Below, piece by piece: positions 264 through 16,595 of a stretch of 64,000 nucleotides of DNA. Every line of letters starts with the position of its first letter. Position 1 is the stretch's first letter. Location: assembly GCA_037305845.1 (NCBI GenBank), contig CP147778.1, positions 3,328,001-3,392,000 on the forward strand, read 5' to 3'. The DNA comes from Candidatus Freyarchaeum deiterrae (lineage in GTDB: Archaea; Asgardarchaeota; Jordiarchaeia; Jordiarchaeales; Jordiarchaeaceae). The notes beneath the pieces were generated by a model that saw only the letters and a program-made list of their open reading frames with translations, did not search any database and was not told the origin of the DNA. Both the position numbers and the translations under genes were made by a program.

Positions 264-1172
264 TCACTGAACATCCATGATGGATATAGCGTCCTCTTCT
301 TTTCTGATTATTTTCATGATTTCAAGTTCTTTTAGAAGGGTATTTAATTTCTTTAAGGGTATGCATAGGTCTTCGCTAAGTTTAGAAACATCGGATTTCC
401 TTACTCGCTTCAAGAAGAACATTATCCTGTATTTCGGATCTCTTTCCAGAATTGGTGTAATTCTCCTCATGAATTCCCTAAAGCTTTGCATTTGGTCTAG
501 AATCTGACTCTCTTCTTCGTAATCAGGAGTGGGGGTATATACGAAAGGAGAGTCTCTTTGTTTCTCTGAGAGGCTTAATGAATTTTGCAGCTTTTCTATG
601 TCTTTCTTTTGATCCAGAATTTTTCTATCCCTAGCCTTTACAGCCAGCATTAATTCGTCTATTCTTTTTTGATATTCTTTAACAACTTTTGCATTGATGT
701 TCTCATCTTTCTCTGTTTCAATTTTGGTATCGGGAGCAGCCCCTGGGATTTTTAAATCGTTCCCAGGGGGCTCAACTTTTCTACTTCCTTTAGTCTTCGT
801 CTGAGAGGGAATCATGTCATTAAAATCAAAATTTTGGGCATGACCAGTGACCGAGGAATGCGCTTTCCTTGACCTACTATGCATCGGTGATGACTGTTCA
901 AGCTCAGAACCAAAAATACTCAATATGTTGTCTATACTTTCCTGTAAAGCATTATCGAATGCTTGTCTAACAACCATATCCAGACCCTTAATAGGAAATC
1001 TTAGCGTTATCCCTCGCACCAATTCGTCCCTAATTTTAACCATGCACCCAATTAACTCTGTCTCAATTGTATCTGAGGATTCTACTTGGGAAACCGCCTC
1101 ACTGCTGCTAGTGACATATGTATACCTTTTTTTCGCACTTTGACTAACTTCAATTTGGGACTCCGTTATCAT
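264..1172 (-). CDS. Hypothetical protein with central coiled coil and C-terminal winged-helix domain
   Basis: 302 aa ORF; heptad region (EYQKRIDELMLAVKARDRKILDQKKDIEKLQNSL); C-terminal DPKYRIMFFLKR...VSKLSEDLCIPLKKLNTLLKELEIMKII resembles a wHTH. Confidence 0.6.
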   Translation of the reverse strand: MITESQIEVSQSAKKRYTYVTSSSEAVSQVESSDTIETELIGCMVKIRDELVRGITLRFPIKGLDMVVRQAFDNALQESIDNILSIFGSELEQSSPMHSRSRKAHSSVTGHAQNFDFNDMIPSQTKTKGSRKVEPPGNDLKIPGAAPDTKIETEKDENINAKVVKEYQKRIDELMLAVKARDRKILDQKKDIEKLQNSLSLSEKQRDSPFVYTPTPDYEEESQILDQMQSFREFMRRITPILERDPKYRIMFFLKRVRKSDVSKLSEDLCIPLKKLNTLLKELEIMKIIRKEEDAISIMDVQ

Positions 1173-1316
1173 TAGCGATCCTCTCTTCTAATTACACTTA
1201 ATAGAATCCATTAGTGGGTCTTACAACCAATTCTTTTGTTCAATTCTTATTTACTAATATATACATGGCACTTCTGAAAAGCTTAGTAAACTTTTTAAAA
1301 ATTGGACCTACGGAGA

Positions 1317-1392
1317 AAAGCGCACGCCTTTTTAACAAAAACCAGAAAGTTTATCCACGCAACTAGTAATAATTTGACACCTTAACTACGCG
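1317..1392 (-). promoter_or_regulatory. Tandem GCGTRG-box operator upstream of 264..1172
   Basis: Minus-strand GCGTAGTTAA (starts 1391), GCGTGGATAA (1360) and weaker GCGTGCG (1327); spacing 31 and 33 bp. Confidence 0.55.
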
Positions 1393-1512
1393 TTTAGCCA
1401 ACTTAACATTAAATGAATAAAATCAGCGAGGTAATGGATGGGCTTATAAATTTTTTTAAAAAAGGTACCAGTTATGAAACTTGAAGTCGGTCTGTTCATA
1501 AAAAGATATGAA

Positions 1513-2631
1513 CTAAGTACTACTAGGTTGCGAAGATGCGTTTAATTGTGTCATGGATGGTTGGAGGATTTCTTTGATTTTATTTGTAGTTTTGTTAATC
1601 ACGTCTATGGCGTATCCCAGTTGAACTTCAGTTTCTATAGGTAGAACGATTAGTAATGAGTGGTCTTCTGTGATATTCACCAGCATTTCGTTCTTTTCTT
1701 CGCCTCTTATGATAACTAGGTTTAACACTTTTTCTCCCAGGTCTTTGAGAACCTTGCTTGAGTTTAGGATTATGAAACCCATCATGGACTGCGTTATGTC
1801 GTCTTTTTCCAGTGTTGAAGCAACTGGTAGTCCGCTGGATTTGTCTATAAGCATGCTTCCCGGAGCTCCAACTTCTTTGTTAAGGTTCGTAAGGATTTTT
1901 CTGATAAGTTGATCGCTGGAACTTTTCTGGGTGTCTGGTTTACGAGTTGTTTTTGAATGTTTCTGTATGAATTTTGAATAGAGTTGCAAGGTCTCCTGAA
2001 ATGCCTCATCAGCTTTCATCCAGTGGTTACCACTCTCCCCTTCCCTCGATTGGGTCTCTTCTATAGAAGTTCCTAAGCAGACTGTTCTTTTTGCAATTTT
2101 TTCAATCTTTTTAAACGAGCTGGGATCAGAGTCAGTTTTTTTGGAGCTAATTTCTGGGGGTGGTAATAGTAGGAGCTCCGCCACTTCTTCGAATGGGAGG
2201 GCTTCGGGTAAATCCTGTTTGTGAGCAAAAATAACTGAGAAAGCATTTGGGGAGTATTTGGCTAATTTGGTTATTGCTCGCCAGAATTCTTTGCGGGCAA
2301 AAGCAAACAATTGTTCCTTATCAGAATCTACAACAAATACGAAGATGCTAACTTTACTAAAGATGTTCTTTTCATTCTCCGGTTGGTGGTAATCTTCAAA
2401 AAACCTTTCCTGCCCACCAAAGTCGTAGAATTGACAAATGTATTTGCTTTTCCTTTTATCCGGATGCACATCTACAAACTCTGTGGGCTGCAGATTTCTT
2501 AGCTGGTCTGCACCAAATCCGTAAATCGTCTGCCTGAGAATCGCGGTTTTTCCAGCGTCCTGAGGTCCCATCAATAAAACCTTTATTCTCTCATTGTGGC
2601 CTTCTAATTCTGTAAAATTTTGTTTCGTCAT
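1513..2631 (-). CDS. Rag/Gtr1-type small GTPase with C-terminal roadblock (LC7) domain
   Basis: KVLLMGPQDAGKT P-loop, DFGGQERF G3, NIFSKV, Rag-type HKQD G4; C-terminal GSMLIDKSSGLPVAST...QLGYAI roadblock pattern. Confidence 0.85.
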   Translation of the reverse strand: MTKQNFTELEGHNERIKVLLMGPQDAGKTAILRQTIYGFGADQLRNLQPTEFVDVHPDKRKSKYICQFYDFGGQERFFEDYHQPENEKNIFSKVSIFVFVVDSDKEQLFAFARKEFWRAITKLAKYSPNAFSVIFAHKQDLPEALPFEEVAELLLLPPPEISSKKTDSDPSSFKKIEKIAKRTVCLGTSIEETQSREGESGNHWMKADEAFQETLQLYSKFIQKHSKTTRKPDTQKSSSDQLIRKILTNLNKEVGAPGSMLIDKSSGLPVASTLEKDDITQSMMGFIILNSSKVLKDLGEKVLNLVIIRGEEKNEMLVNITEDHSLLIVLPIETEVQLGYAIDVINKTTNKIKEILQPSMTQLNASSQPSST

Positions 2632-2865
2632 ATCTCAGAGCCTCCTAATCCTAAATCAGTAAATGAAAGGTTATGCGAAACGGTAACTAAAAGCGGCTCA
2701 TTTCACATTTAATGTATATTATTTCTCACTAATCACTCAATTTAGAAACTATTGAATGGAAATTACTGTAATATAACTTGTTTCGAATCTATAAAAAACT
2801 TATGCGTTCAAGTTCAATTATTAATTGGGATTTGCTGTTGTTATGAAGTTTTGCGAAGGATGAGT

Positions 2866-3969
2866 TTATAGTGATAATTTTAGGTCTTTTTTCTCGAAGT
2901 TTGTGACATTTAGGATTTGTATTATTTTTGTTGCAGGTAATGTGCTGATTTTTTGGTCTGTAAATTCTTTTAATTTTGCTCTGTTTTCCGAGAAGACCAT
3001 AATTAGTGCGTTTTCTTTGCCTGCGGTTTCGCAGACGAATTTTACGTCAGACATTTCTTTAAGCGTGGATAAAACCCTGGTTAGTTCTGAGGGTCCAACT
3101 TCTAGAATAATGAAGGATATTTCTTCTTTTCCTACTTTATGCGGGTTCACAATTGCTGTGATTTCCTCTATTATTCCGCTTTTAAGCAGTTTGTCAACCC
3201 GATCCCTGATGGTTGCGTCGCTAACTTTCATTTTTCTGCTAATCTCGCGGAAAGAGGTGCGTCCATCATTCTGGAGAATATTTATCAAGTGAATGTTTAA
3301 GGGGTCTAATTCCACTTCTCTCTTTCGGGAGGGCTTAATCTCAGTAAGCATGGGTCTATAGGCCAGTAGATTTACTATACTGGGACGCATTCCTTTATTG
3401 AACCTGAAGGAGTATAATTCCTGCCTCAAGGCTTCATCTACTTTAAATTCATAATCACAGTTAAAACAATGCATCCGCCTCACGGGCTGGGCAAAAAATG
3501 CTCCGCACGCTTCACACATATTGGTTTCGGTAACCTTATAGTCCTCCGCCTCAGACCGCAGCTTCTTATTACATTTCGGGCAAATAAGCATGGTAGCTTT
3601 TCCAAATTTTTCCTTAAGATCAATACGCCCACACTCAAAATGTTCTATTACCGTCTTTTGACTAATGTTCCCACTTTCACACTTCGGGCAGGTCAACCTC
3701 AAATGAATATCGAAGCTCTTGCACTCCGGGCAGACAAGCATTACGTCAACAGCATTTTTCTGGAGAACATTCAATTCGCTGAGTCTGTTCAGTATTTCAA
3801 AGGTTTCCAAACTGTTCATCTCCATAATTTTTTCCGCTTCAGGGTATCGAAATCCCAGATTAGCTGAACGCGAAAACTGGGGAGAAAACTCCAAATCCGG
3901 CTCACTCAAAAATCTTTCAATAAGTAACCAGACCCGCTGATCAGACAAAAACGAGACTAATTCTTCCAC
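2866..3969 (-). CDS. TackOD1-like multi-zinc-finger domain fused to Lrp/AsnC regulator
   Basis: Repeated CxxC motifs (CPEC, CPKC, HFECG, CPKC, CEAC, CFNC) followed by LDPLNIHLINILQNDGRTSFREISRKMKVSDATIRDRVDKL AsnC HTH and an effector domain. Confidence 0.8.
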   Translation of the reverse strand: MEELVSFLSDQRVWLLIERFLSEPDLEFSPQFSRSANLGFRYPEAEKIMEMNSLETFEILNRLSELNVLQKNAVDVMLVCPECKSFDIHLRLTCPKCESGNISQKTVIEHFECGRIDLKEKFGKATMLICPKCNKKLRSEAEDYKVTETNMCEACGAFFAQPVRRMHCFNCDYEFKVDEALRQELYSFRFNKGMRPSIVNLLAYRPMLTEIKPSRKREVELDPLNIHLINILQNDGRTSFREISRKMKVSDATIRDRVDKLLKSGIIEEITAIVNPHKVGKEEISFIILEVGPSELTRVLSTLKEMSDVKFVCETAGKENALIMVFSENRAKLKEFTDQKISTLPATKIIQILNVTNFEKKDLKLSL

Positions 3970-4260
3970 GGCTTTAACCCTCTGACCTTTGCATCTGAAA
4001 GACTCTTTAACTATAAAGACATTCTAAACAAATATGTTTTTTGTCAGAAAGAAGCTCCCAAAAGAAGTAGAGCTAAAAGGAAGCGATCCACATTCAGCTC
4101 TACTAAATCCTCCTTGAAGAACCCTAGTCCAAGCAGAGGGTGAAAACCACACGGGAGAAAGAGAAAACAATTATCCAACTTAACATTGGGTTTTAAAAAA
4201 ATTTATAAATTCTCCAACACTCATCTCATTTCTTTCTCTTCAGGTGATTTATTACCCAAT

Positions 4261-4301
4261 GCGTGGTTAAGGTGTTAAACAATTATTAATTAAGCAGATA
4301 A
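4261..4301 (+). promoter_or_regulatory. Tandem GCGTRG-box operator upstream of 4399 ATPase
   Basis: GCGTGGTTAAGGTGTTAAA closely matches the minus-strand element at 1391 (GCGTAGTTAAGGTGTCAAA); degenerate second copy AAGCAGATAA 31 bp downstream. Confidence 0.5.
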
Positions 4302-4398
4302 GCCTTACATTTTTCACGAAAAAAGAGCATGCTTCGATTCTAAGAACTGTTTTCGGAGGCTCTACCTCATTTTTAGAACACCTGAATATTATTATGAA

Positions 4399-5853
4399 GT
4401 GGAACATTTACCGAAATATTTGGTGGGTAGAGCTTTGTTAAGTATTGAAAAAGGGGTTCCTATTGAGATATCAAATCTTTTGGAAAAGGGAGGATACTCT
4501 CTCCATATCAAGGGCTCTGCGGGAACCGGTAAGACTACCCTCGCATTAGAAATAGCTAAGAATTTGTCTCCTAAGGCGAGTGCTATTTATCTTTCCACTC
4601 GGGTTTCACCAGAGAGGATCCTAACTCAATTTCCATGGGTAAGGAGCTGTCTAGAGGAGCAGGACATTATAGACGCCAAGCGAGCTTACATATCTTCAGA
4701 CGTTCAAAGAAATGTGGCGGAGTACACAGATCAACCTGAATTCCTGAGATCCTTAAAAGAAAGGATTCAAAAATCGGAACGCCGCCCAGTAACTGTTATT
4801 ATTGACAGTCTAGACGCCCTGAAATCGAATCTTAACCTTGAAGATATGGATATCACCATGGAAACCATTCTTTTAGAAATTGGTGAAAAAACAGACACAA
4901 ACATGTTGTTCGTTACGGAAAAAAGCGGTGAAAACAGATTAGACTATTTAACAGATGGAGTGGTAAGACTAGAACGAGAAATCCTAAACGGAAGACTCGT
5001 AAGAAGAATATACTTGGAAAAGATACGAGGAGAAAAAATTCGGCAACCATATTATCTTTTCACGCTTAATGAAGGCAGATTCACCTCCTTTAGTCCAAAA
5101 ATTCTCCCAAGTCTCATATACGATATGGATAAATTGGTAGCAAAACAGGAAAACCTTATCCCCACAGGTATAAAAATGCTGGATACTCGTGGTGGAATAC
5201 CTAAAGGATCATTTAACCTCCTTGAAAATATGAATGGTATGGGAATGGAATATGCCTATATCTTGTTTCCCATAATTTTAAGTTTTATTCAAAGAGGTTG
5301 CCCCGTATTTGTAACTCATCCGTATAGCAGTTCCATTCAATCATCTTACATGTCCATTATCTCTCAAATGGGAATCAAAGATGAAAATATTGTTTCCATA
5401 TCCCGAGAATATCTTTACTATTTCGAATTCACACAATTGAAGGAAACCCCCATACTAACTCCAATTCGTGTTTCAAAAGACAGTAGTATAGATGATTTTA
5501 ACGAATTACTCAAGGAATCGGTAACTAAAACTCTCGAGAAACTTGGTGCTGACACCTTTTTATGGCTCGTTGGAGTGGACACTATGGAGCGAATTTATGG
5601 AGGAACAAACTTTAGAAAGGCTATAGGAACCCTAGCTTATGAAACAAATAATCTTAATGGAATTATTATTGCGTTTGCTAAACAGGGTGTCAAATCTATG
5701 GATTCTCTAATTCACCTCTCGACATCCCACTTCGTACTAGATAATGTGGGGGCGCCGGTAATATATGGTGTGACTCCTAAAACTGGAATGTTCGCCATAG
5801 CCACCGAAACAATGAATGGGCATGATAGAATAGCCCTTGTACCAATCGAATAA
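4399..5853 (+). CDS. Two-domain KaiC/RAD55-superfamily ATPase (GvpD P-loop-like), second domain degenerate
   Basis: Walker A GSAGTGKT, Walker B VIIDSLD, LDYLTDGVVRL, EKIRG; second RecA fold (IPTGIKMLD..GGIPKGS) lacks GKT. Confidence 0.75.
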   Translation: MEHLPKYLVGRALLSIEKGVPIEISNLLEKGGYSLHIKGSAGTGKTTLALEIAKNLSPKASAIYLSTRVSPERILTQFPWVRSCLEEQDIIDAKRAYISSDVQRNVAEYTDQPEFLRSLKERIQKSERRPVTVIIDSLDALKSNLNLEDMDITMETILLEIGEKTDTNMLFVTEKSGENRLDYLTDGVVRLEREILNGRLVRRIYLEKIRGEKIRQPYYLFTLNEGRFTSFSPKILPSLIYDMDKLVAKQENLIPTGIKMLDTRGGIPKGSFNLLENMNGMGMEYAYILFPIILSFIQRGCPVFVTHPYSSSIQSSYMSIISQMGIKDENIVSISREYLYYFEFTQLKETPILTPIRVSKDSSIDDFNELLKESVTKTLEKLGADTFLWLVGVDTMERIYGGTNFRKAIGTLAYETNNLNGIIIAFAKQGVKSMDSLIHLSTSHFVLDNVGAPVIYGVTPKTGMFAIATETMNGHDRIALVPIE

Positions 5854-6002
5854 AAGAAAAAAACAATTTAAAAATAGAATTATAACTTTGAAAAGTTAAG
5901 ATAAGGAAGAGATATATACCAAAGTTAATCATTTTTATTACAGAAACTTGAAAAATTCTAAAAAAAGGATAAAAAATATTATAAATAGTGAGGGATGCGA
6001 AA

Positions 6003-6794
6003 ATGAGTTTAGTTGAAACTATACCATCCGGTATTCCCGGCCTAGATGAACTGCTGAACGGCGGGTTACCAAAAGGTAGAGCAATCTTAGTCTCAGGCGG
6101 ACCAGGAACTGGAAAAAGTATTCTATCTGCACAATTCATATACAACGGTGCCAAAGAATACGGTATCCCCGGAATCATAGTGAGCTTGGAAGAACCCGCA
6201 ACAACAATAAAAGAAAACCTAAGCGCCTTCGGATGGGACTTGGACAAACTCGTAGATGAGAATCTGCTGGTGATAATAGATGCAGCACCTATTCAGAGAA
6301 GCACGGATGCCGGAGATCGCGTTTATGAGATTTCCGGTGAGAGCCATCCGATTCTGGGTGAAAGGTCTTTCAATATTGAGAACCTCGTGTCAGTTATACA
6401 TGAGAAGAGAAGAGAGCTAAACGCAACAAGAATAATAGTGGACTCCATAACGAACCTTACACTTCAGCACAAGGACCTCTTCCAGCTCAGACAAGATGTC
6501 CTCACTCTTGTGCGTTCACTTAAAGCAACTGGAGTAACCTCACTCCTTACGGCTGAAAGCCTAAACGTGCACGAGATGGGGCGCTACGGTCTGGAACCCT
6601 TCATAGCGGAAGGAGTAATCCTGCTCTACATGCTGAGGCAGGGAAATACAAAAATAAGAGCACTGGAAATCATGAAAATGCGAGGAATAAATCACAGCAT
6701 GGACGCAGCCTTCTTCAGAATAACAAATAAAGGCGTAGTTCTGTACCCCGAGGAACGTGTTTTCAAAGAAGATTCGCGAGGAATCATCTGGTAA
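6003..6794 (+). CDS. Single-domain KaiC/RAD55 family ATPase
   Basis: IPSGIPGLDELLNGGLPKG, GGPGTGKS, SLEE, IIVDSIT, KMRG; start refined to ATG 6003. Confidence 0.9.
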   Translation: MSLVETIPSGIPGLDELLNGGLPKGRAILVSGGPGTGKSILSAQFIYNGAKEYGIPGIIVSLEEPATTIKENLSAFGWDLDKLVDENLLVIIDAAPIQRSTDAGDRVYEISGESHPILGERSFNIENLVSVIHEKRRELNATRIIVDSITNLTLQHKDLFQLRQDVLTLVRSLKATGVTSLLTAESLNVHEMGRYGLEPFIAEGVILLYMLRQGNTKIRALEIMKMRGINHSMDAAFFRITNKGVVLYPEERVFKEDSRGIIW

Positions 6795-6949
6795 CTAAAC
6801 AATCGAAAAAAATAAAATAGGTCTACCCACTCAATAAAGTGAACAGAAAAATTATCCAATTATGCAAAAGATATCTGAGACAAAAAAAGTTTTTAAGACT
6901 ATACAAAAACTCATCTTTTCGGAATGAAATTTCAGCAGCATGATTAACC

Positions 6950-6990
6950 GCGTAGTTAATACATTTTAATTCTGCTATTTGCGTAGAAAT
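6950..6990 (+). promoter_or_regulatory. Tandem GCGTAG-box operator upstream of Rab-like GTPase
   Basis: GCGTAGTTAA at 6950 and GCGTAGAAAT at 6981 (31 bp spacing). Confidence 0.55.
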
Positions 6991-7118
6991 TAACAATTGC
7001 ATCAAGACAAAAATTATGCGCCCTATACTCTCCAATATTATTTATTATTTAACTAAAATTTTTACTGGTCAACGATTATTACATAGACTTTGGTGGAAAA
7101 AGAAAGGTGTGACGTACT

Positions 7119-7646
7119 ATGTCTAAAATGAAAGATTTCGACTATTCGGTAAAGGTTCTAATTGTAGGGGACGGTGGAGTCGGTAAAACGAGCCTGACAC
7201 GCAGATTCGCAACCGGGCAGTTCACACAAGAATATATTCAAACCATAGGTGTGAACCTTTTCACCAAAATCATCGAAGTGAAGGGTCAGAAAATGAAGAT
7301 GCACCTCTGGGATACAGGCGGTCAAGAGAAGTTTAGAAATTTATTACCAAAATATTATGAAGGGGGTAGCTGCGGACTTGTGGTTTACGATGTGACAAAA
7401 CCCCTAACTCTCAAAAAGTGTGGTTGGTGGGTAAGCGAGATAACCAAGAATCGTGGTAAAATTCCCCTGATACTAATAGGTAACAAAACCGATCTTGATA
7501 GACAGATCTCTACAGAGGAAGGCCAAGCTATTGCAGACAAACTAGGCATACCTCTTATCGAAACCTCTGCTAAAGACCAAATCAACGTTGAAAATGCCTT
7601 CTCCCTCCTGGGAGAAATGATTTTAGAAAACGCAGAGAAGCAATAG
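7119..7646 (+). CDS. Rab-like small GTPase
   Basis: GDGGVGKT, TIGV, WDTGGQE, NKTD, ETSAK motifs; no C-terminal prenylation cysteines. Confidence 0.92.
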   Translation: MSKMKDFDYSVKVLIVGDGGVGKTSLTRRFATGQFTQEYIQTIGVNLFTKIIEVKGQKMKMHLWDTGGQEKFRNLLPKYYEGGSCGLVVYDVTKPLTLKKCGWWVSEITKNRGKIPLILIGNKTDLDRQISTEEGQAIADKLGIPLIETSAKDQINVENAFSLLGEMILENAEKQ

Positions 7647-7828
7647 CCCCTCTAGGAATTTTAAGCAGTATAAAATGAATCGAAGGAAAAAAAACTAATT
7701 ACCATTCTATAAGTCGTATTCTTTTTCTCTTTCTTCTACTCTTCTATGTTATCTGCCACACTTTTTGGAAGCTTCAGTGTTTCAGTCTATATAACTCAAC
7801 AAGTTTGGAGTATTGAAAACGATTGATT

Positions 7829-8632
7829 TTAAACCTTCTCTTTTGCTCTTTTGCTCCCTTTCGGAGTTAATTGGCAACTCGAATCTTGAACGCTTTTTAC
7901 CATGCTGTTAAGGAAAGGAGTTGAGAAAACTATTTCTGGTCTTGCACCGTTACGTTTTGCTATAGAGTATTGCTTTTCTTCAGCGTAAGGTATTCCCGAA
8001 GCATGCTTCACTATCTGTATGTAGTTTTGTCTTCTATGTTCCCTAAACTCGGTTCTTGTTTTGATCACGGTGTTTGCCAGTGCCTGTATTCTTTTCTCTA
8101 CGCTGTTTTCGGTAACTCCTTGAGATAACATGTAGTATTCTATTGTTTTACACCTCATTGCTTCCTTAATGTTTTTATTAAAGAACTGAATCACCTCATT
8201 TGTTTCAAAGTTTATGAAGAGGGAGCTAAGAGAGTAGAGACAAACTAAAGGGCCCGGAGCATTCTCGTCCGATTTTTGGAACTGTTTGTCTCTCGCCGTC
8301 TTCATGGTAAGAAATATATCAAAGACCTTTGAGCAATTTTCGAGGTAGTATTCGGTTTCATAAACGTTTTTTGGCGAAATACTGTCTATAACCGTAAAAT
8401 TCTCAGAGTGAATAATATCCTCGATCATTTTTGCAAATTGAAGGGAGTCAGGCGATGTTATTACAAGAATGACACTCCCTCCTTGATTGTAGTGGTTTCG
8501 AATTATTTCTGAGAGAATAAAATCATTGCCCGACCCAATATCATCTATAAAAAGAACAACGTCACCTCTACCTATCCCACTATCAAGCATTTGGTCTAAA
8601 TCTTTTAATCCAGTAAACTCATTCGCACCCAT
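7829..8632 (-). CDS. Catalytically degenerate KaiC/RAD55-fold protein
   Basis: FTGLKDLDQMLDSGIGRGDVVL N-terminus; Walker A degenerate (DDIGSGND); Walker B lacks Asp (VCLYSLS). Confidence 0.7.
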   Translation of the reverse strand: MGANEFTGLKDLDQMLDSGIGRGDVVLFIDDIGSGNDFILSEIIRNHYNQGGSVILVITSPDSLQFAKMIEDIIHSENFTVIDSISPKNVYETEYYLENCSKVFDIFLTMKTARDKQFQKSDENAPGPLVCLYSLSSLFINFETNEVIQFFNKNIKEAMRCKTIEYYMLSQGVTENSVEKRIQALANTVIKTRTEFREHRRQNYIQIVKHASGIPYAEEKQYSIAKRNGARPEIVFSTPFLNSMVKSVQDSSCQLTPKGSKRAKEKV

Positions 8633-9282
8633 TTAATATAACCTTCATTGTAGGTTATTTCCCACTTGCATTGATTAGCATTAATGAGGATAGGTATATT
8701 TTGAAGGGGTTTGGTCTCTAAATCCCCAAAAATAATAAGCTTATTATTTTGAAATTCGAATACTCTCAAGTTATTTGAGTAGAATTATCACATTTATAGA
8801 TGTATATTAAATATTATATATACATTTTGGGTCTTTTGCAACTTTAGTTCCCATTAATGGTGATTATCTGAACTTAACTTGAACATTATGTAAAAAGAAG
8901 GTCTTCTTTTTAAGAAGATTATGTGAATTTAAGCATTAGTCTGCGATTTTATGCGAAGAGTATTCAAAAATGCTATTTGGTAACTAACAAAATTTTTTGG
9001 GATTGCAGAGATGCTTGGAAAAATGTATGTTTTACCGATTTTTCAAGAACATTTGTTCACTATCTTATTTTATATTTTATTTATTGTTCAATTTATGTGC
9101 ATGCTTGTATGAAACAAAACAGCTTTTAAAATTTTGAACTAGTCTAAATATTTGGCTCTAAATTCTCAAACAAACCAAAACAGAATTATTTTCCTCGTAT
9201 TATCTGGTTTTTTTGGAAAATCTTTATAAATGATATTCCAAAATTTTCAAATTTTTGAAGTGCTTTTGGGGTCTATGTTTTT

Positions 9283-9324
9283 GCGTAGTTTATGGCTCTG
9301 TGTAGGGTATATTTGCGTGGTATT
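9283..9324 (+). promoter_or_regulatory. Tandem GCGTRG-box operator upstream of longin-TackOD1 gene
   Basis: GCGTAGTTTA at 9283 and GCGTGGTATT at 9315 (32 bp spacing). Confidence 0.55.
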
Positions 9325-9430
9325 TTGTTCTTATTTTTCTTGGAAAAGGGTTTTGTAAGATTAGTATAGGTAGTTTTTCTTCGCATTTTTTGGCTTTTTC
9401 GTAGTGTCGGTTACATTATATGGTGATAGT

Positions 9431-10840
9431 ATGCCCAAGGGAATCGTTGTTATTAAGTGGGACGATAGAGTTGGTCCTGTGATTCTGGCCAAGCATCCTG
9501 AGAAAATTGGATTTGACATGGATCTAGCTATGAAGGTGTACACTACTCACTTTGCTGGTTCCACTCCACCCTTCTCGGTTTTAGATATTGGAGACTGGCA
9601 CATTGCGAGTTATTATCTTCCAAAAGACAAGTATCTCTTCGCTCTGGTTCTTGATCCCGAAGAACGCGGAGACAAGTATGAGGATAAGCTTTTCGCAGTT
9701 GCAGGTAAGTCCAAGAAACTTATGAAGAAAAAGAGAGGCATTATCGACGATTTACCCAAGCTATACGCCGAGTTGAAGACTGCAGGAGTCACCTTTAAGA
9801 GAAGTGAACTGTACGAAAAACCAGAGATTAAGAAGCTCTTGGAAAAGTTTATGGATAACACTTTGTCTGAGCTTGAACCTACTTTTAACTGGGATGAAGG
9901 ATTTAGATACACTAATGTAGAGAAAATTACAGGTCTCGACCCCATTGACACCAAAGTTTTGCTTGAAACTCTTAGCAGATATAAACTCCTTAACCGGAAA
10001 GCTTTCGATTCCGCTTTAGCCTGCCCTAATTGTGGTTCCTTTAGGATTCGGGTTCGTTACCGTTGCCCTTACTGCTCCTCGTTTAGTATTCAAAAGAGCA
10101 ACTTTATTGAGTGTTTCCTCTGCGGCACAGTCGACACTGAGGAGTTTTTTTCAGGAGTCTACTACGGCGAGCCTGACAAGTACTTCTGTCCAAAATGTGA
10201 GAAAGAGCTTAAGGGCCTGAGTTTGGATTACCGAAAAATACAGGCACAGAACAGGTGCGAAAACTGCAAAAAAATATTCACAGAAGTTAATGTCGCGGTT
10301 CAGTGCACCGAATGCAACCACACCGTTAAACTTGCTTTCACTAAAATAGTTGAAGCACCATTTTACACTCTAAACACGGAATACACTAAAGAAATCAAGA
10401 GACAAATATCAAGCATACAATTAAGACAGATGATCTCCAGCCTCTACAAGAAGAAGGGTTGGAAAGTGGAAGCACCAGGAACAATTGTGGGCAGCGACAA
10501 TGTTACCTACGATTTTCAAGTCGTAGCCGAAATGCCTGACACTCTGGGCAAGGAATTAATTAAAAACATTCTCCCAGGAGGAAAAATCGCGATTGACATT
10601 GTTGAGGACACAGAGGAAGTCAAAAAGGAAAAGATCATGGAATTCGTAGGAAAAAATACGAGCATAGTCCCAGTCCAGTACCTAATAGTAGCTATACCCA
10701 AACTATCAGAAGAGGCGAAACAACTCCTGAAAAAACAGGAAATAATGTTCTGCGAAAAGGAAAGGGCACAAAACGAGGTACCAGCACTAGTTGAAAACAT
10801 AGCATGTATAGATGTTTCAGAACTCGTGCCAGAGAAATAA
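9431..10840 (+). CDS. Longin(uDENN/NPR2-like)-TackOD1-restriction-fold fusion protein
   Basis: N-terminal MPKGIVVIKWDDRVGPVIL longin start; six CxxC pairs; C-terminal GWKVEAPGTIVG...YDFQVVAE Mrr-like fold; ATG 9431 follows a GGTGA SD. Confidence 0.65.
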   Translation: MPKGIVVIKWDDRVGPVILAKHPEKIGFDMDLAMKVYTTHFAGSTPPFSVLDIGDWHIASYYLPKDKYLFALVLDPEERGDKYEDKLFAVAGKSKKLMKKKRGIIDDLPKLYAELKTAGVTFKRSELYEKPEIKKLLEKFMDNTLSELEPTFNWDEGFRYTNVEKITGLDPIDTKVLLETLSRYKLLNRKAFDSALACPNCGSFRIRVRYRCPYCSSFSIQKSNFIECFLCGTVDTEEFFSGVYYGEPDKYFCPKCEKELKGLSLDYRKIQAQNRCENCKKIFTEVNVAVQCTECNHTVKLAFTKIVEAPFYTLNTEYTKEIKRQISSIQLRQMISSLYKKKGWKVEAPGTIVGSDNVTYDFQVVAEMPDTLGKELIKNILPGGKIAIDIVEDTEEVKKEKIMEFVGKNTSIVPVQYLIVAIPKLSEEAKQLLKKQEIMFCEKERAQNEVPALVENIACIDVSELVPEK

Positions 10841-11243
10841 AATAAATAAAATGATTATCCAGGAAAACTCCAGCACCAAAAATTCGTGAAAAAAACACCC
10901 CGGCGGTGCAGATTCACCAATCCTTGGTTGAAAAGAGGCCTATTATGACCTCTTTTGAGGAAGACCACCCAATCTGCGTTCCCGTCGGGGTGCAAATGTT
11001 TACTTTTAAATCTCATTTGGAGAGGCCTACTATCGGGGTGGTTAGTAAAAGCATAGGGGGTATAAGAAGAATGGATGGTTGGAAGTGTGTGTGGTGGAAT
11101 AGTGTATCGGTTGTTTTTGTTCACTTGATACTATTTAAGACCAAACCTTCTTCCTCTTTTTCGGTGTGGGTTGCACTGGAGGCTTTTACGTTCAAATTTT
11201 ATGAAGCTAAAATAAAACAAAGTATTAGGGGGAGAAATCGACA

Positions 11244-12224
11244 ATGAAAAAAAGAGGATTCTTAGAGGTCTTGACAATACTACTGCTAACCCCCACATTA
11301 CTTGCGATGACACAACAAGATAAGGGCTTTACGCTTTATCTTTTGCTGGGAGTGGCGATTTGTTCCGTGGTTGTGGCTATAATAGCCGCTAATAGGTTGC
11401 GTATAAAACATGTGATTCCAACTAAAGTTTTGGCTAGTCTTGAAAACATCATTATAGACCATACTCTCAGCGGCGTCACTCTATGGGCGTTTGACTTTCT
11501 AAGAATGAATCAGGACGTAGGACTTCTTTCCGGATTCATGTCCGCCGTGAGATCATTTCTGGACGAGATGAAAGAGGGTGGCCTAAGAAAACTGGAAACT
11601 GAGTCTAGAATGCTTATCAGAGAGAATGGTGATTTTCTGACAGCAACCTGTATCGCCCGTATCAAGACTCCTCAGGAAGAGGAATGGATTAGACAAAGGC
11701 TGCGTAAATTTTTGTTAAACGCTGAACAACAACACCGAAAAAGGCTGGAAAATTGGATGGGCTGTGTCAGGCCTTTCAAAGCCTCATTTATGAGGATCCT
11801 GGCTTCAGTGATTAATCTCGATAAGGCTGAGAAGCTTCAAACGGAGAGGCTTTCCAAGATCCGGAGAGACAAAGAGAGACTCCAAGAGGAGCTTAGAACC
11901 CTGAATTTCCAGCTGGAGAAGCTAAACCAGCAGTTAGGCGTTGAAGAAATAAATGAAAAGGAGTTTGAAGCTAGGAAAAACGAAATAGAACTGAACTATG
12001 AAGACATTCAGAATAATTACGATGAAACTAGTCTCCTCCTATCAAGGGTGCCCTCCACACCAAGGAAAAAACTAATTACAACAGTAGTCACGAGGGAGAC
12101 TAGAAATTATGCAAATCAGACTCCTCTAAACCAAAATGAAAAAAGAAAAATTACAAGTGAAAGAGCGTGGAGGCACCACAAAAACCGGAAACAAAAAAAT
12201 ATTAAAAGTATTTATAACATATAG
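11244..12224 (+). CDS. Membrane-anchored longin-domain protein (short paralog of 12274 lacking the ectodomain)
   Basis: Two N-terminal hydrophobic segments, then Asgard longin motif LLSGFMSAVRSFLDE and a coiled coil; highly similar to the C-terminal third of 12274. Confidence 0.75.
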   Translation: MKKRGFLEVLTILLLTPTLLAMTQQDKGFTLYLLLGVAICSVVVAIIAANRLRIKHVIPTKVLASLENIIIDHTLSGVTLWAFDFLRMNQDVGLLSGFMSAVRSFLDEMKEGGLRKLETESRMLIRENGDFLTATCIARIKTPQEEEWIRQRLRKFLLNAEQQHRKRLENWMGCVRPFKASFMRILASVINLDKAEKLQTERLSKIRRDKERLQEELRTLNFQLEKLNQQLGVEEINEKEFEARKNEIELNYEDIQNNYDETSLLLSRVPSTPRKKLITTVVTRETRNYANQTPLNQNEKRKITSERAWRHHKNRKQKNIKSIYNI

Positions 12225-12273
12225 TTATACAGGAAAGCATTAAAAATTATCGTGAAATGCGAGACGACCAACA

Positions 12274-15156
12274 ATGAAGAAAAGGGGAATCCTAACAATA
12301 GCAGTGGTCTTTTTTCTAATAATCCTAGCAGTCGGGATGCTTTCAACGTCAAATCCTCCAGCAATATTTCAAAACTATCCCCAAAATAATCCGAAAGCAA
12401 CCATAAAATCATACATCGGAAGCGGCGACCAGTTAAACGCTCTGCTCTACATAGTGAACAACTACAACAGCACTGCGAATGCTACAAGCACAACCTCTAA
12501 CATATACCTTCCCTGCCCTGCCGGTTGGAAAATCGTCTGGACGAACCTGACCCTATCAAACATTTTTGCTCCCAACAGTACCATTGTACCCAACAATGAT
12601 GTTGATAACGCTAGTTTTACACTCGCCACAGGTTCCCCTTACGCGATGTCATTTCAATTAACAAATAACGCATGGCTGGATAACATTAGTGTTCTGCTGA
12701 ACACCGCAAGTTCAAGTGCTAAAGCAAACTTTTACGTTTACAATGCGACAAACAATAGTGGAATACCTCAACCATATTATCGAATTGCTAGCATATTAGG
12801 AGTTTCACTCACAGTTGGAACTATCTGGAAAAATGTTACTTTTCCGCATATATTTTTGGATACTTCAAAAACGTTTGGTAACACCTTCTTTATCGGTGTT
12901 GAACGAAGCAACTCTTATGCTCAGTACTGGAGAGCTGTTAACTATACGACATCACCTTTTCTGGGCTACGGATACGTGTATCAAAACATCTACGGAGTTT
13001 GGGCGTATTTATCGCATTATGATTGCAAACTCAAAGTTAATGTGAGTGCAAGCACAACACCAAACCCTGAGAGTGCCCTGCCCTCAGAAATAGGCTTAAC
13101 CATTAATGGTTCACTAGTTTCAGACATAAGTAAGGGCAGTGGAGTATGGATTAATAGTACAGCAGCTTATGGAATAAATGACTACGTCTTCCAAGATGCG
13201 AATTCAACTTGGATGTCCACCGTACGTTTCTCTTACGTTTGGAACGTCACCTACAACAGAGAAACCAATGCTAGTACTAATTTTGTCGTTAATACTGGTA
13301 GTAACGCTTTTTGGAATATTACAGTTAATGCAACTGGCAATGACGCTTTCCCGTTGACTGCCCATGGCATTAATCACATAAATATCACAGGGATTCCCAT
13401 CTTTTGGGGAGATGAGAGTTCTATGGCGTATAATATGACAGGCGGCAGTTGGATTCCGCTGGATTCTTATCCCCCTGATACTATTAGTTTTCCCGCCGGT
13501 AACGGAACCTGGATCGTGAACTGCACATCTCCTAACCATCAACCTGATATAGACTTCAATGTTGGTGGGGCGCAGGTTGAAAACGCAACCCTTGATGATG
13601 TTCTTAACATTACCGTAAACTTTTACACTCCTGTTGGGGGTACTGCTAATCTTAGTGTATATGACCCTTCTCAAATTCTGAATTATTCAGCTGAAAACAT
13701 TTTAAACTTGGGTACAAGTACTTGGTTTACTTGGAATGTTAGCAATAGTGCTGCATCCACTGGAACGTATAACGTAACCATCCGGTTCAAGTACGGATTA
13801 ATTGTCGGGTATAATGAAACAACTCTCAATATTGTGCCTTTTATAAACGCTACCATCGGTATCAACAGTTTTTCACCAGATATTGAGTATCCTAATAACG
13901 CTTCTGTAATTCTCTACTATAATGACGGAACAGGACAGGGAATAATAGGAGCATTAATTACCGCTCATGATGACACCAAACAATTAAACATTAGTTGGGA
14001 TGATAACAGTGATGGCACCTACAACGTTACAATATACTTCGGTACAGACTTCGGTACCCACCAAGTTTATCTCACCACCAGTAAACGACTTTATGAATCA
14101 AGCACTTCTGACCCAATCTCAATCAATTACGTACCTTCAAACCCAGAACCAATAAACCCTCTATACGCTGCTCTAATTGGATTAATGTCCAATACCATGA
14201 CGGAACAGAATCAAAGCATTACTCTTTATCTCTTAATCGGAACCATTGCGGGATCTGTGATTACGGCGGCAGTGGGAACTGATAGGCTGCGTAGGAAACG
14301 CGAGGTACCAATAAAGGCTTTAGCAAGCCTCGAAAGTATTATTATAGACCACACAATCAGCGGCGTCACAATGTGGGTGTTTGACTTTATAAAAATGGAT
14401 CAGGACGTAGGTCTTCTCTCAGGATTTATGTCCGCGGTCAAATCATTCTTGGATGAAATGAAAGAGGGCGGACTAAGAAAGCTGGAAACGGAATTTAGAA
14501 CCTTCATCAGAGAGAACGGCGAGTTTCTAACAATTACCTGCATCGCTAGCATTGACACTCTACAAGAAGAGGAATGGATTAGACAAAGACTACGCAAATT
14601 TTTACAAGACGCAGAGCAACAGCACCGGGATACGCTCGAAAACTGGATGGGCAATCTCAAACCTTTCAAAACCTCATTCATGGAGATACTGGCTTCAGTA
14701 ATCGATCTCGATAAGGCGGAGAAACTCAAGATGGAAAGAATCACCAAGATACAGAGAGATAGAGAGAGCCTCCAAGCGGAGCTAAACAATTTGAATTCTC
14801 AGATGAAGAATCTAAACAAGCAGTCAAAAGCAGGAGAAATCAGCAAAGAAGAATTTGAAGTCAAAAAAACCGAAATAGAGCTGGAGCACCAAAGTGTTCA
14901 GAGACAATACGAAGAGGTCGACCTCCTTCTATCAAGATTGCCGACCACCCCCGAACAGAAAAAGGCTACAATAGCACCCAATAAGAAGATCGCAAAACAA
15001 ACAGGACAGGCTCCTCTAAATAATAATGGAAACATGGGAATTACAAAAGAAAGAGCTGGAAAACTCGATAAACAACAGAAACAAAAAACGCGTAGAAAAA
15101 TTTCGAAAATAACTAATGATTCTTCTCGGAAAAAACCGAAGAAACTACAAAAATAA
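12274..15156 (+). CDS. Receptor-like membrane protein: large Asn/Thr-rich ectodomain, TM, cytoplasmic longin domain and coiled coil
   Basis: N-terminal signal/TM; about 600 aa beta-rich region with many N-x-S/T sequons; TM followed by RLRRKR; LLSGFMSAVKSFLDE; GEISKEEFE SHOCT-like motif. Confidence 0.75.
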   Translation: MKKRGILTIAVVFFLIILAVGMLSTSNPPAIFQNYPQNNPKATIKSYIGSGDQLNALLYIVNNYNSTANATSTTSNIYLPCPAGWKIVWTNLTLSNIFAPNSTIVPNNDVDNASFTLATGSPYAMSFQLTNNAWLDNISVLLNTASSSAKANFYVYNATNNSGIPQPYYRIASILGVSLTVGTIWKNVTFPHIFLDTSKTFGNTFFIGVERSNSYAQYWRAVNYTTSPFLGYGYVYQNIYGVWAYLSHYDCKLKVNVSASTTPNPESALPSEIGLTINGSLVSDISKGSGVWINSTAAYGINDYVFQDANSTWMSTVRFSYVWNVTYNRETNASTNFVVNTGSNAFWNITVNATGNDAFPLTAHGINHINITGIPIFWGDESSMAYNMTGGSWIPLDSYPPDTISFPAGNGTWIVNCTSPNHQPDIDFNVGGAQVENATLDDVLNITVNFYTPVGGTANLSVYDPSQILNYSAENILNLGTSTWFTWNVSNSAASTGTYNVTIRFKYGLIVGYNETTLNIVPFINATIGINSFSPDIEYPNNASVILYYNDGTGQGIIGALITAHDDTKQLNISWDDNSDGTYNVTIYFGTDFGTHQVYLTTSKRLYESSTSDPISINYVPSNPEPINPLYAALIGLMSNTMTEQNQSITLYLLIGTIAGSVITAAVGTDRLRRKREVPIKALASLESIIIDHTISGVTMWVFDFIKMDQDVGLLSGFMSAVKSFLDEMKEGGLRKLETEFRTFIRENGEFLTITCIASIDTLQEEEWIRQRLRKFLQDAEQQHRDTLENWMGNLKPFKTSFMEILASVIDLDKAEKLKMERITKIQRDRESLQAELNNLNSQMKNLNKQSKAGEISKEEFEVKKTEIELEHQSVQRQYEEVDLLLSRLPTTPEQKKATIAPNKKIAKQTGQAPLNNNGNMGITKERAGKLDKQQKQKTRRKISKITNDSSRKKPKKLQK

Positions 15157-16013: not shown

Positions 16014-16454
16014 ATGGCTGAAGAGAAAACGCGTTTGGTTAAAGCGACTGCGAGTTGGAAAGGTGGAGGTCTTCAGGGCAAGATAGACTATCTTAACGGC
16101 GTAAAACTGGATTTTGTTGCCCCAGCCCCATTAGGGCCCCGAACGGATATGATAACACCGGAGGGAAGCCTCGTGGCTGCTCTCTGCATGTGTTATGAAC
16201 TTACTCTAGTATTCTTCCTCCAGAGCATGAAAATCGAAGTATCCGAATTGGAGGTCAGAGGCGTGGGAGATGCACCGGGAGATGTAGGCCCGGGAAAGGG
16301 ATTCAAGAAAATCGAGCTAAAACCAGTATTTAAGGTTAAGAAAGCGGATAAAGATAAGGCACTCAAGGCAGTGAATCAGGCAAAAGACTATTGCCTAGTA
16401 GCTAACTCCTTAAAAGCACCCATCACGCTCGCACCAGAAATTAATACCATATAG
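16014..16454 (+). CDS. OsmC/Ohr family protein
   Basis: TPEGSLVAALCMCY and KDYCLVANSL cysteine motifs. Confidence 0.85.
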   Translation: MAEEKTRLVKATASWKGGGLQGKIDYLNGVKLDFVAPAPLGPRTDMITPEGSLVAALCMCYELTLVFFLQSMKIEVSELEVRGVGDAPGDVGPGKGFKKIELKPVFKVKKADKDKALKAVNQAKDYCLVANSLKAPITLAPEINTI

Positions 16455-16595
16455 CCAGGTGAACAAAAAATTCCCGAGTAACTTCTTCTCTCATACTTTC
16501 TTTTTCAAAGAAAAAAAATAATTTAAACAGCTAAATGTCTTATTCTTCTTCTTTTTAAGAGCATTCCCAAAATATAAAAAAGAAAGGAAGATTTT

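Follow-up and report, generated by a model that had tools for sequence, protein, structure and literature searches.

Ten consecutive genes (g1 to g10) at positions 264-15156 of the window analysed here, a 64,000-nucleotide stretch of the Candidatus Freyarchaeum deiterrae genome (contig CP147778.1, positions 3,328,001 to 3,392,000 of the forward strand), place eukaryote-like GTPases and longin proteins beside archaeal KaiC-like ATPases and TackOD1-domain proteins, and raise the question of whether they form one system and what ties them together. A sequence-only reading had proposed a hybrid pathway, with membrane longins as receptors acting on Rag and Rab GTPases and relaying to KaiC and TackOD1-Lrp outputs. 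The idea of a hybrid system holds to the extent that core modules recur together in sister species and other Asgard archaea and share a promoter element; the receptor wiring is not supported. We lean towards the view, based on comparison of the sequences, that the core would be one regulon together with its regulator, an Lrp protein under which GTPase, longin and KaiC parts are co-expressed.

Four core promoters, those of g1, g4-g5, g6 and g8, share GCGYRG sites placed 31-32 bp apart, one of these sites being degenerate. In the common layout, a B recognition element and TATA box (BRE/TATA) precede a GCGYRG site 60 bp past the TATA start (52-53 bp past the end of the TTTWTAA box in each promoter), and a second site follows 31-32 bp further on. 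The g1 promoter (1355-1450, minus strand) has its TATA-like box at 1444-1450 and sites from 1391 and 1360, 31 bp apart, and is kept in the four sister species G007-G010. The g4-g5 promoter (4202-4302, plus strand) has a TATA-like box at 4202-4208, a site at 4261 and the degenerate second site; the g6 promoter (6890-6986, plus strand) has a TATA-like box at 6890-6896 and sites at 6950 and 6981; and the g8 promoter (9223-9320, plus strand), kept in G008-G010, has a TATA-like box at 9223-9229 and sites at 9283 and 9315, 32 bp apart. Pairs of GCGTRGWWWW with this 31-32 bp spacing occur three times in the whole genome, all in intergenic DNA of the island (1391/1360 on the minus strand, 6950/6981 and 9283/9315). 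Sister species have this layout ahead of g1, g8, the gene before g6 and the longin-GTPase gene before g3, and the DNA between the sites has diverged while their spacing and sequence are retained. A weight matrix trained on sister-species sites only ranks the g8, g1 and g6 sites first, second and third genome-wide, a ranking that is only partly independent, since the training sites were themselves found with the motif. Every strict match in Freyarchaeum (12/12) lies upstream of a core gene; the genome G006 has none, and g2 and g9-g10 carry no operator.

The g1 and g4 promoters are near-copies over the TATA box and first site (window 1400-1465 and 4190-4300), which suggests promoter duplication, and most promoters have a T-tract/A-tract after the second site. 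One full TATA-plus-tandem element lies outside the cluster in G008 (L037:16454, contig C4, minus strand), before an unknown 204-aa gene that is a possible extra member of the regulon there. Other TATA-plus-single-site matches were taken as chance, being within or antisense to coding regions or lacking a second site. A sigma-70 promoter scan, a model not apt for archaea, matched shuffled sequence equally.

Which genes belong to the core is answered by the sister species. In G007-G010 one contig carries the order longin-GTPase, g3, g1, longin-GTPase, GvpD-like gene; a longin-GTPase comes next after g1 in all four, and the two longin-GTPase copies flank g3-g1. A second contig of G010 reads g5, a longin/roadblock-like gene, g6, g7, g8, OsmC and a pyruvate formate-lyase-like (PFL-like) gene, and pieces of it are present in G007, G008 and G009; the contigs are broken, and no contig-end overlaps join the two halves in these metagenome-assembled genomes. 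The core found in the four species thus comprises g1, g3, g4, g5, g6, g7, g8 and the longin-GTPases. The Rag-roadblock gene g2 (1513-2631, minus strand) never lies between g3 and g1 in G007-G010, and its sole orthologue (57%) is in G006, in a different neighbourhood. Likewise, the membrane longin genes g9 (11244-12224, plus strand) and g10 (12274-15156, plus strand) never lie between g8 and OsmC, which directly follows g8 in G008, G009 and G010. G006 (99% complete, 540 contigs) lacks orthologues of g1, g3, g5, g7 and g8, and still has both the Rag-roadblock and the membrane-longin kinds, one membrane longin adjoining DNA that matches a GNAT gene. Because g2 and g9-g10 are absent at these positions in relatives, while the core is present or missing as a set, the comparison marks them as later local insertions that the module does not need. 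The gene-neighbourhood check across Asgard genomes that had been suggested for the locus bears out the recurrence of the core and not that of g2 and g9-g10. A Rag-Lrp nutrient-sensing link, with g2 behind g3, was rejected, as this adjacency is unique to this genome.

These comparisons bear directly on the proposal that g9 and g10 are receptors, acting as guanine nucleotide exchange factor (GEF) or GTPase-activating protein (GAP) on g2 and g6 and relaying to KaiC and TackOD1-Lrp. The genes are adjacent here, with a third membrane longin just upstream of the window; a copy in G010 shares a contig with the core, about 14 kb away; and unrelated longin-tailed membrane proteins stand beside Rab-TackOD1 genes in two other lineages, one of them a Hermodarchaeum genome. 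We nevertheless consider these receptors unlikely, given the positions in relatives and the missing operators described above, the eight copies of the membrane-longin family scattered over the genome, and the absence from its alignment of the WD/GP motif of GAP-type longins, which sits in the soluble g8 instead. As a part of the pathway g2 fares no better, being present in G006, where the core is lacking.

The element extends beyond the genus. Among 400 Asgard genomes, the strict pattern occurs in 15 of the 22 with a TackOD1-Lrp gene and in 11 of the 378 without, and a reversed-motif control occurs in 26 of the 400; matches in families without TackOD1-Lrp are mostly intragenic. In Hermodarchaeum all ten loci with DNA upstream of TackOD1-Lrp have the element there (10/10), about 250 bp before the conserved start. 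Its sites fall at 0 and +31, with a further one at +93-95 in eight loci, and a TATA-like box stands at +112-114. Each later site is preceded, at a distance of 9 bp, by an inverted half (at about +22 and +85). This gives a semi-palindromic box with a 4-bp centre, of the kind expected for Lrp/AsnC regulators (13-15 bp, centre AT-rich); one half only is conserved in Freyarchaeum.

The candidate reader of this element is g3 (2866-3969, minus strand), in which TackOD1 (8e-38) is fused to an AsnC helix-turn-helix (HTH; PF13404, 2e-11) and a RAM domain (PF22482, 4e-9). The HTH-then-RAM layout places it among the Lrp/AsnC feast/famine regulatory proteins (FFRPs), and its PDB matches are Pyrococcus FFRPs at 1e-20. 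The Methanocaldococcus jannaschii regulator Ptr1 has the consensus TACGC-WWW-GCGTA and the contact residues F, S, E, G, T and R (PMC2715240). The half-site GCGTA of the element is identical to half of this consensus, and g3, with F-S-D-A-T-R at the six contact positions, agrees with Ptr1 at four of six and is the sole Lrp of the genome with this set. The recognition helix is nearly invariant among TackOD1-Lrp proteins, which are also the only predicted DNA-binding proteins common to the Freyarchaeum and Hermodarchaeum settings. From these matches we predict that g3 probably reads the shared element. The regular spacing in both genera recalls Ss-LrpB, which binds arrays of regularly spaced sites, wraps DNA and regulates its own gene (PMC1802622). 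Thus g3 resembles Ptr1 and Ss-LrpB in its AsnC HTH and RAM, in its regularly spaced sites and in likely autoregulation (PMC2715240, PMC1802622); it differs from both by an N-terminal TackOD1 zinc domain and by predicted targets that are GTPase, longin and KaiC genes rather than metabolic genes. The sites differ from those of Ptr1 in that they are direct half-sites in Freyarchaeum and palindromes with a 4-bp rather than a 3-bp centre in Hermodarchaeum.

The element could be real and the core co-regulated with a different reader, namely the winged-HTH (wHTH) protein g1, g8 itself or an RNA-binding protein on the leader. The Freyarchaeum sites do fall in the predicted 5' leader, ahead of the conserved tracts, g1 co-occurs with the sites within the genus, and some genomes with TackOD1-Lrp lack the element. 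We rate another reader as quite unlikely: g1 has no homologue in G110, the single Hermodarchaeum genome searched for it, which has the element; the Hermodarchaeum element stands upstream of TackOD1-Lrp itself, before a TATA-like box; and an RNA reading of the element was rejected, with zero consensus pairs and no Rfam match.

The remaining core genes include the presumptive targets. The GvpD-like protein g4 (4399-5853, plus strand) is a KaiC/GvpD P-loop protein with a double domain, the N-domain having intact Walker A, Walker B and KIRG. The single-domain g5 (5988-6794, ATG at 6003, plus strand; 90% identical in sister species) is a KaiC-like ATPase by its profile match (5e-69) and its intact Walker A/B, catalytic EE and KxRG. 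A cyanobacterial KaiC clock was rejected, since g5 has one domain and scores 194 bits against a cut-off of 408, and no KaiB was found among the ten genes. The small GTPase g6 (7119-7646, plus strand; Ras profile 4e-52) has intact G1-G5 and ends in ENAEKQ without prenylation cysteines, so that by sequence it is an Asgard Rab-like GTPase and not a Rab of the eukaryotic kind. An inactivated KaiC-fold protein, g7 (7829-8632, minus strand), matches FlaH/KaiC weakly only (1e-5 to 1e-4), its Walker A broken and without the lysine. In g8 (9404-10840, ATG at 9431, plus strand) a longin is joined to TackOD1 (5e-32) and a weakly matching, degenerate Mrr-like C-terminus. The AlphaFold model of its N-terminal longin has a predicted local distance difference test score (pLDDT) of about 85-90, Foldseek's top matches are GATOR1, DENN and Ykt6, and it carries WDxxxGP, that is, the WD and GP motifs of C9orf72-type longins. 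WDxxxGP has been described as a C9orf72 signature, and GP-motif longins are known from Asgard archaea (PMC12290439). The gene g1 (264-1172, minus strand), core in Freyarchaeum only, encodes a coiled coil with a probable C-terminal wHTH (a weak call). Downstream of it lie the core longin-GTPases, three longin-Arf-like GTPase fusions (LG1-3) on the minus strand: LG1 at window -955 to 34, its 5' end at 1-34, and the others at -1933 to -995 and -2967 to -2020. This tandem (L001:11033-14034, minus strand) has an atypical G5 (G-x-VATD).

The same modules meet in other Asgard lineages, 107 of the 400 genomes having TackOD1. The Helarchaeota genome Hel_GB_A has a run of longin, Rab, two GTPase fusions, KaiC, dead KaiC and TackOD1-Lrp, and G122 has a dead KaiC, TackOD1-Lrp, longin, longin-GTPase, longin-TackOD1 and Rab. 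Longin-TackOD1 is followed by Rab, with GTPase fusions alongside, in G125 and G128 and adjoins KaiC in G011 and G310; Rab precedes a TackOD1 protein in G011, G014 and G303. In Hermodarchaeia, Rab is followed by longin-TackOD1 in two of the three loci checked, and a separate run holds KaiC, Rab, a GvpD-like gene and a receiver. In a quick tree, g5 groups with KaiCs beside TackOD1 genes of four other families (support of 98 in the Shimodaira-Hasegawa-like approximate likelihood ratio test), and the dead KaiCs next to TackOD1-Lrp in Helarchaeota match g7 only. That the island is merely a hotspot, in which paralogous signalling genes and copied promoters accumulated without a common function, is very unlikely. 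Such a view could draw on the 29 Ras-like and 21 KaiC-like matches in the genome, on the gene order shuffled between species with differing inserts and on the failure to recover one clade of TackOD1-linked Rabs. Against it, the same KaiC clade adjoins TackOD1 genes across five families, the operators retain their spacing and sequence despite diverged DNA between the sites, core genes and operator are jointly missing in G006, and the two domains are joined in a KaiC-GTPase fusion elsewhere in the genome, which shows that they cooperate.

That fusion, which supports a functional link of the two families, is part of a row of KaiC, KaiC-small GTPase fusion, roadblock and KaiC in the same genome (G000:C1:2388301-2391592, L119). 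A Rab also stands beside three inactive KaiCs (G000:C1:2722681-2726806, L120), and inactive KaiC-like families are expanded at G000:C1:3137505-3237219 and 1251568-1256863, with five double-domain and four tandem copies. Hermodarchaeia and a Thor-like genome repeatedly show a KaiC with 46-49% identity to g5 together with a GvpD-like ATPase and a receiver-sized gene (L101, L103-L107); most of these runs have a Rab in or beside them, and two further KaiCs occur there too. TackOD1 with a degenerate Mrr-like domain and no longin lies directly behind Rab in three lineages (L039, L041, L052, L017), an arrangement in which TackOD1 may be a Rab effector. One longin-TackOD1 protein (L057:9311-10294) has the loop GDRKNALL, which we take to resemble the arginine-finger loop of NPRL2 and which may mark a catalytic form.

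Several observations weigh against a single regulon read by g3. In this genome no site faces g3, and g7 has none; the Freyarchaeum sites are half-sites with no clear palindromic partner, the promoters may all derive by duplication from a single ancestor, and it was on this genome that the motif was first defined. Related genomes are not independent, so that the co-occurrence of element and TackOD1-Lrp counts as evidence from no more than two lineages. None of the TackOD1-Lrp genes in a second Hermodarchaeia genus (0/4) or in Helarchaeota (0/2) has the element upstream, and the HTH helix of these element-free proteins is nearly the same; for Ala36, the base expected from the published code differs at one position. 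Hermodarchaeum has no element at its KaiC-Rab-GvpD and Rab-longin-TackOD1 genes, and the regulon may therefore be specific to Freyarchaeum. Many TackOD1 genes stand without a GTPase or KaiC gene beside them, and trees did not establish g6 as an orthologue of other TackOD1-linked Rabs, a single clade of all of these being neither recovered nor rejected (p = 0.072, approximately unbiased test). Lastly, the g8 longin has no conserved arginine: the short loop before its last strand, presumably the position of the GAP finger, reads PKDK here and PREK in relatives.

How would such a regulon work? Archaeal transcription starts at a characteristic distance from the TATA box, and measured this way the Freyarchaeum sites are at about +30 and +61 relative to the expected start, which makes repression likelier than activation there. 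A g3 oligomer of the DNA-wrapping Lrp type would bind the phased sites. In sister species, where a promoter with the element stands before the longin-GTPase and g3 pair, g3 would regulate its own gene; in this genome the longin-GTPase gene upstream of g3 has been lost. The co-expressed products may form one cytoplasmic switch module, with g8 as a non-catalytic platform or adaptor of C9orf72 type for Rab or longin-Arf-like GTPases. The g8 longin shows no evident arginine finger, and any action on g6 or the Arf-like domains would require a second longin as partner, which LG1-3 might supply. In addition, g8 may dock on the KaiC g5. The predicted g5-g8 complex scored 0.34 against 0.00 for the best control, its runs agreeing in at least 92% of contacts and its partners having pLDDT of at least 80; in calibration, scores of 0.60 or under were given to 7 of 80 solved complexes and to both passing mismatches. 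Support from this modelling for the docking is weak, and such a prediction would be wrong more often than right unless the pairing was likely beforehand. The dead ATPase g7 could serve as scaffold or inhibitor, and, more speculatively, the TackOD1 zinc domains of g3 and g8 might offer a docking surface that returns the state of KaiC and GTPases to transcription. The full feedback circuit, with Rab- and Arf-like GTPases, a C9orf72-type longin and KaiC under an Lrp-family factor and with TackOD1 coupling the switch back to that factor, we regard as doubtful.

Around this core, the extent of the island needs some revision. All ten open reading frames are present over the claimed span, no metabolic gene was found between them, and the gaps hold no standalone extra frame above 80 aa, just overlapping shadow frames. 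The island is larger than had been proposed, with LG1-3 directly upstream together with a radical SAM gene and the third membrane longin. The domain names given from the letters were roughly correct, profiles agreeing for g2-g6 and g8, and the calls of wHTH in g1 and KaiC in g7 are weak. Module-bearing genes reach 12 per 15 kb here against a maximum of 5 elsewhere in the 3,576,204-bp single-contig genome (described as complete in PMC11291895), a contrast inflated by profiles seeded from the island; both TackOD1 genes of the genome, g3 and g8, sit in it, and the Ras-like, KaiC-like and membrane-longin matches are spread genome-wide. OsmC and glycyl-radical (PFL-like) genes at window 16014-19112 directly flank g8 in three sister species (80-83% identical).

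The inserted genes have their own relatives. With a G domain (Gtr1_RagA, PF04670, 3e-20) followed by a roadblock (weak in Pfam, 93 bits with a local profile), g2 is Rag-like; its G1 is the variant GPQDAGKT and its G4 has HKQD. A second Rag-roadblock gene (38% to g2) lies in a three-gene run at window 41266-44784 with unknown 488-aa and longin-wHTH genes, a run that, unlike g2, is kept in sister species. Both g9 and g10 have transmembrane helices, g9 being a short membrane protein with a cytoplasmic longin-like domain and coiled coil, and g10 a single-pass protein with a sequon-rich ectodomain and a cytoplasmic part like that of g9. Their longin assignment comes from a full-length profile match to the longin of longin-GTPases, where iterated profiles may share members, and from Atlas matches to Fuz_longin clusters; the AlphaFold model of the g9 longin is poor (pLDDT 51), and fold and PDB searches with it returned nothing.

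Every part of the core belongs to a known family; what is new is that core and insertions are told apart and that an operator and its likely regulator are tested across lineages. TackOD1 (PF18551) is listed as an output domain of unknown function (PMC5847659), and its fusions to Lrp and to longin are architectures unlisted there. As far as they are described in that source, archaeal KaiC-like ATPase hubs (Makarova, Galperin, Koonin 2017, via PMC5847659) resemble the core in that active and inactivated KaiCs cluster with putative input and output domains; the core differs in having no receiver domain or kinase and in its Rab- and Arf-like GTPase partners. The g8 longin folds like those of GATOR1 and DENN and shares with the eukaryotic longin GAP complexes (C9orf72-SMCR8, FLCN-FNIP, GATOR1) WD and GP motifs beside small GTPase genes, but it is fused to TackOD1 and an Mrr-like fold rather than DENN and has no evident arginine finger. 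A Roadblock-Rab-DENN operon and longin-two-component fusions have been described in Asgard archaea by Liu et al. (bioRxiv 10.1101/2020.10.19.343400), who do not mention KaiC. Those systems likewise join eukaryote-like GTPase regulators to prokaryotic signalling parts in conserved neighbourhoods; here there is no DENN, and divergent units are tied by a shared operator rather than by one operon. In the open literature, subscription journals lying outside the search, one paper naming TackOD1 was found, and none joining Asgard, KaiC and GTPase or dealing with the motif.

Tran et al. 2024 (PMC10933270) found that small GTPase genes of MK-D1 are generally not in operons with roadblock or longin genes, considered GTPase-regulator pairing hard to predict, and suggested transcription-factor-specific regulation without giving an example. 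The locus described here is a concrete case for that idea: it names a candidate regulator, defines an operator and limits the presumably co-regulated set to a few GTPases, a GAP-type longin and KaiC ATPases. It gives otherwise orphan Asgard GTPases partners and a candidate regulator that can be tested with purified proteins and short DNA, and gives TackOD1 its first candidate partners. If true, the feedback circuit would link nutrient-type sensing to GATOR/folliculin-like GTPase regulators by a prokaryotic route.

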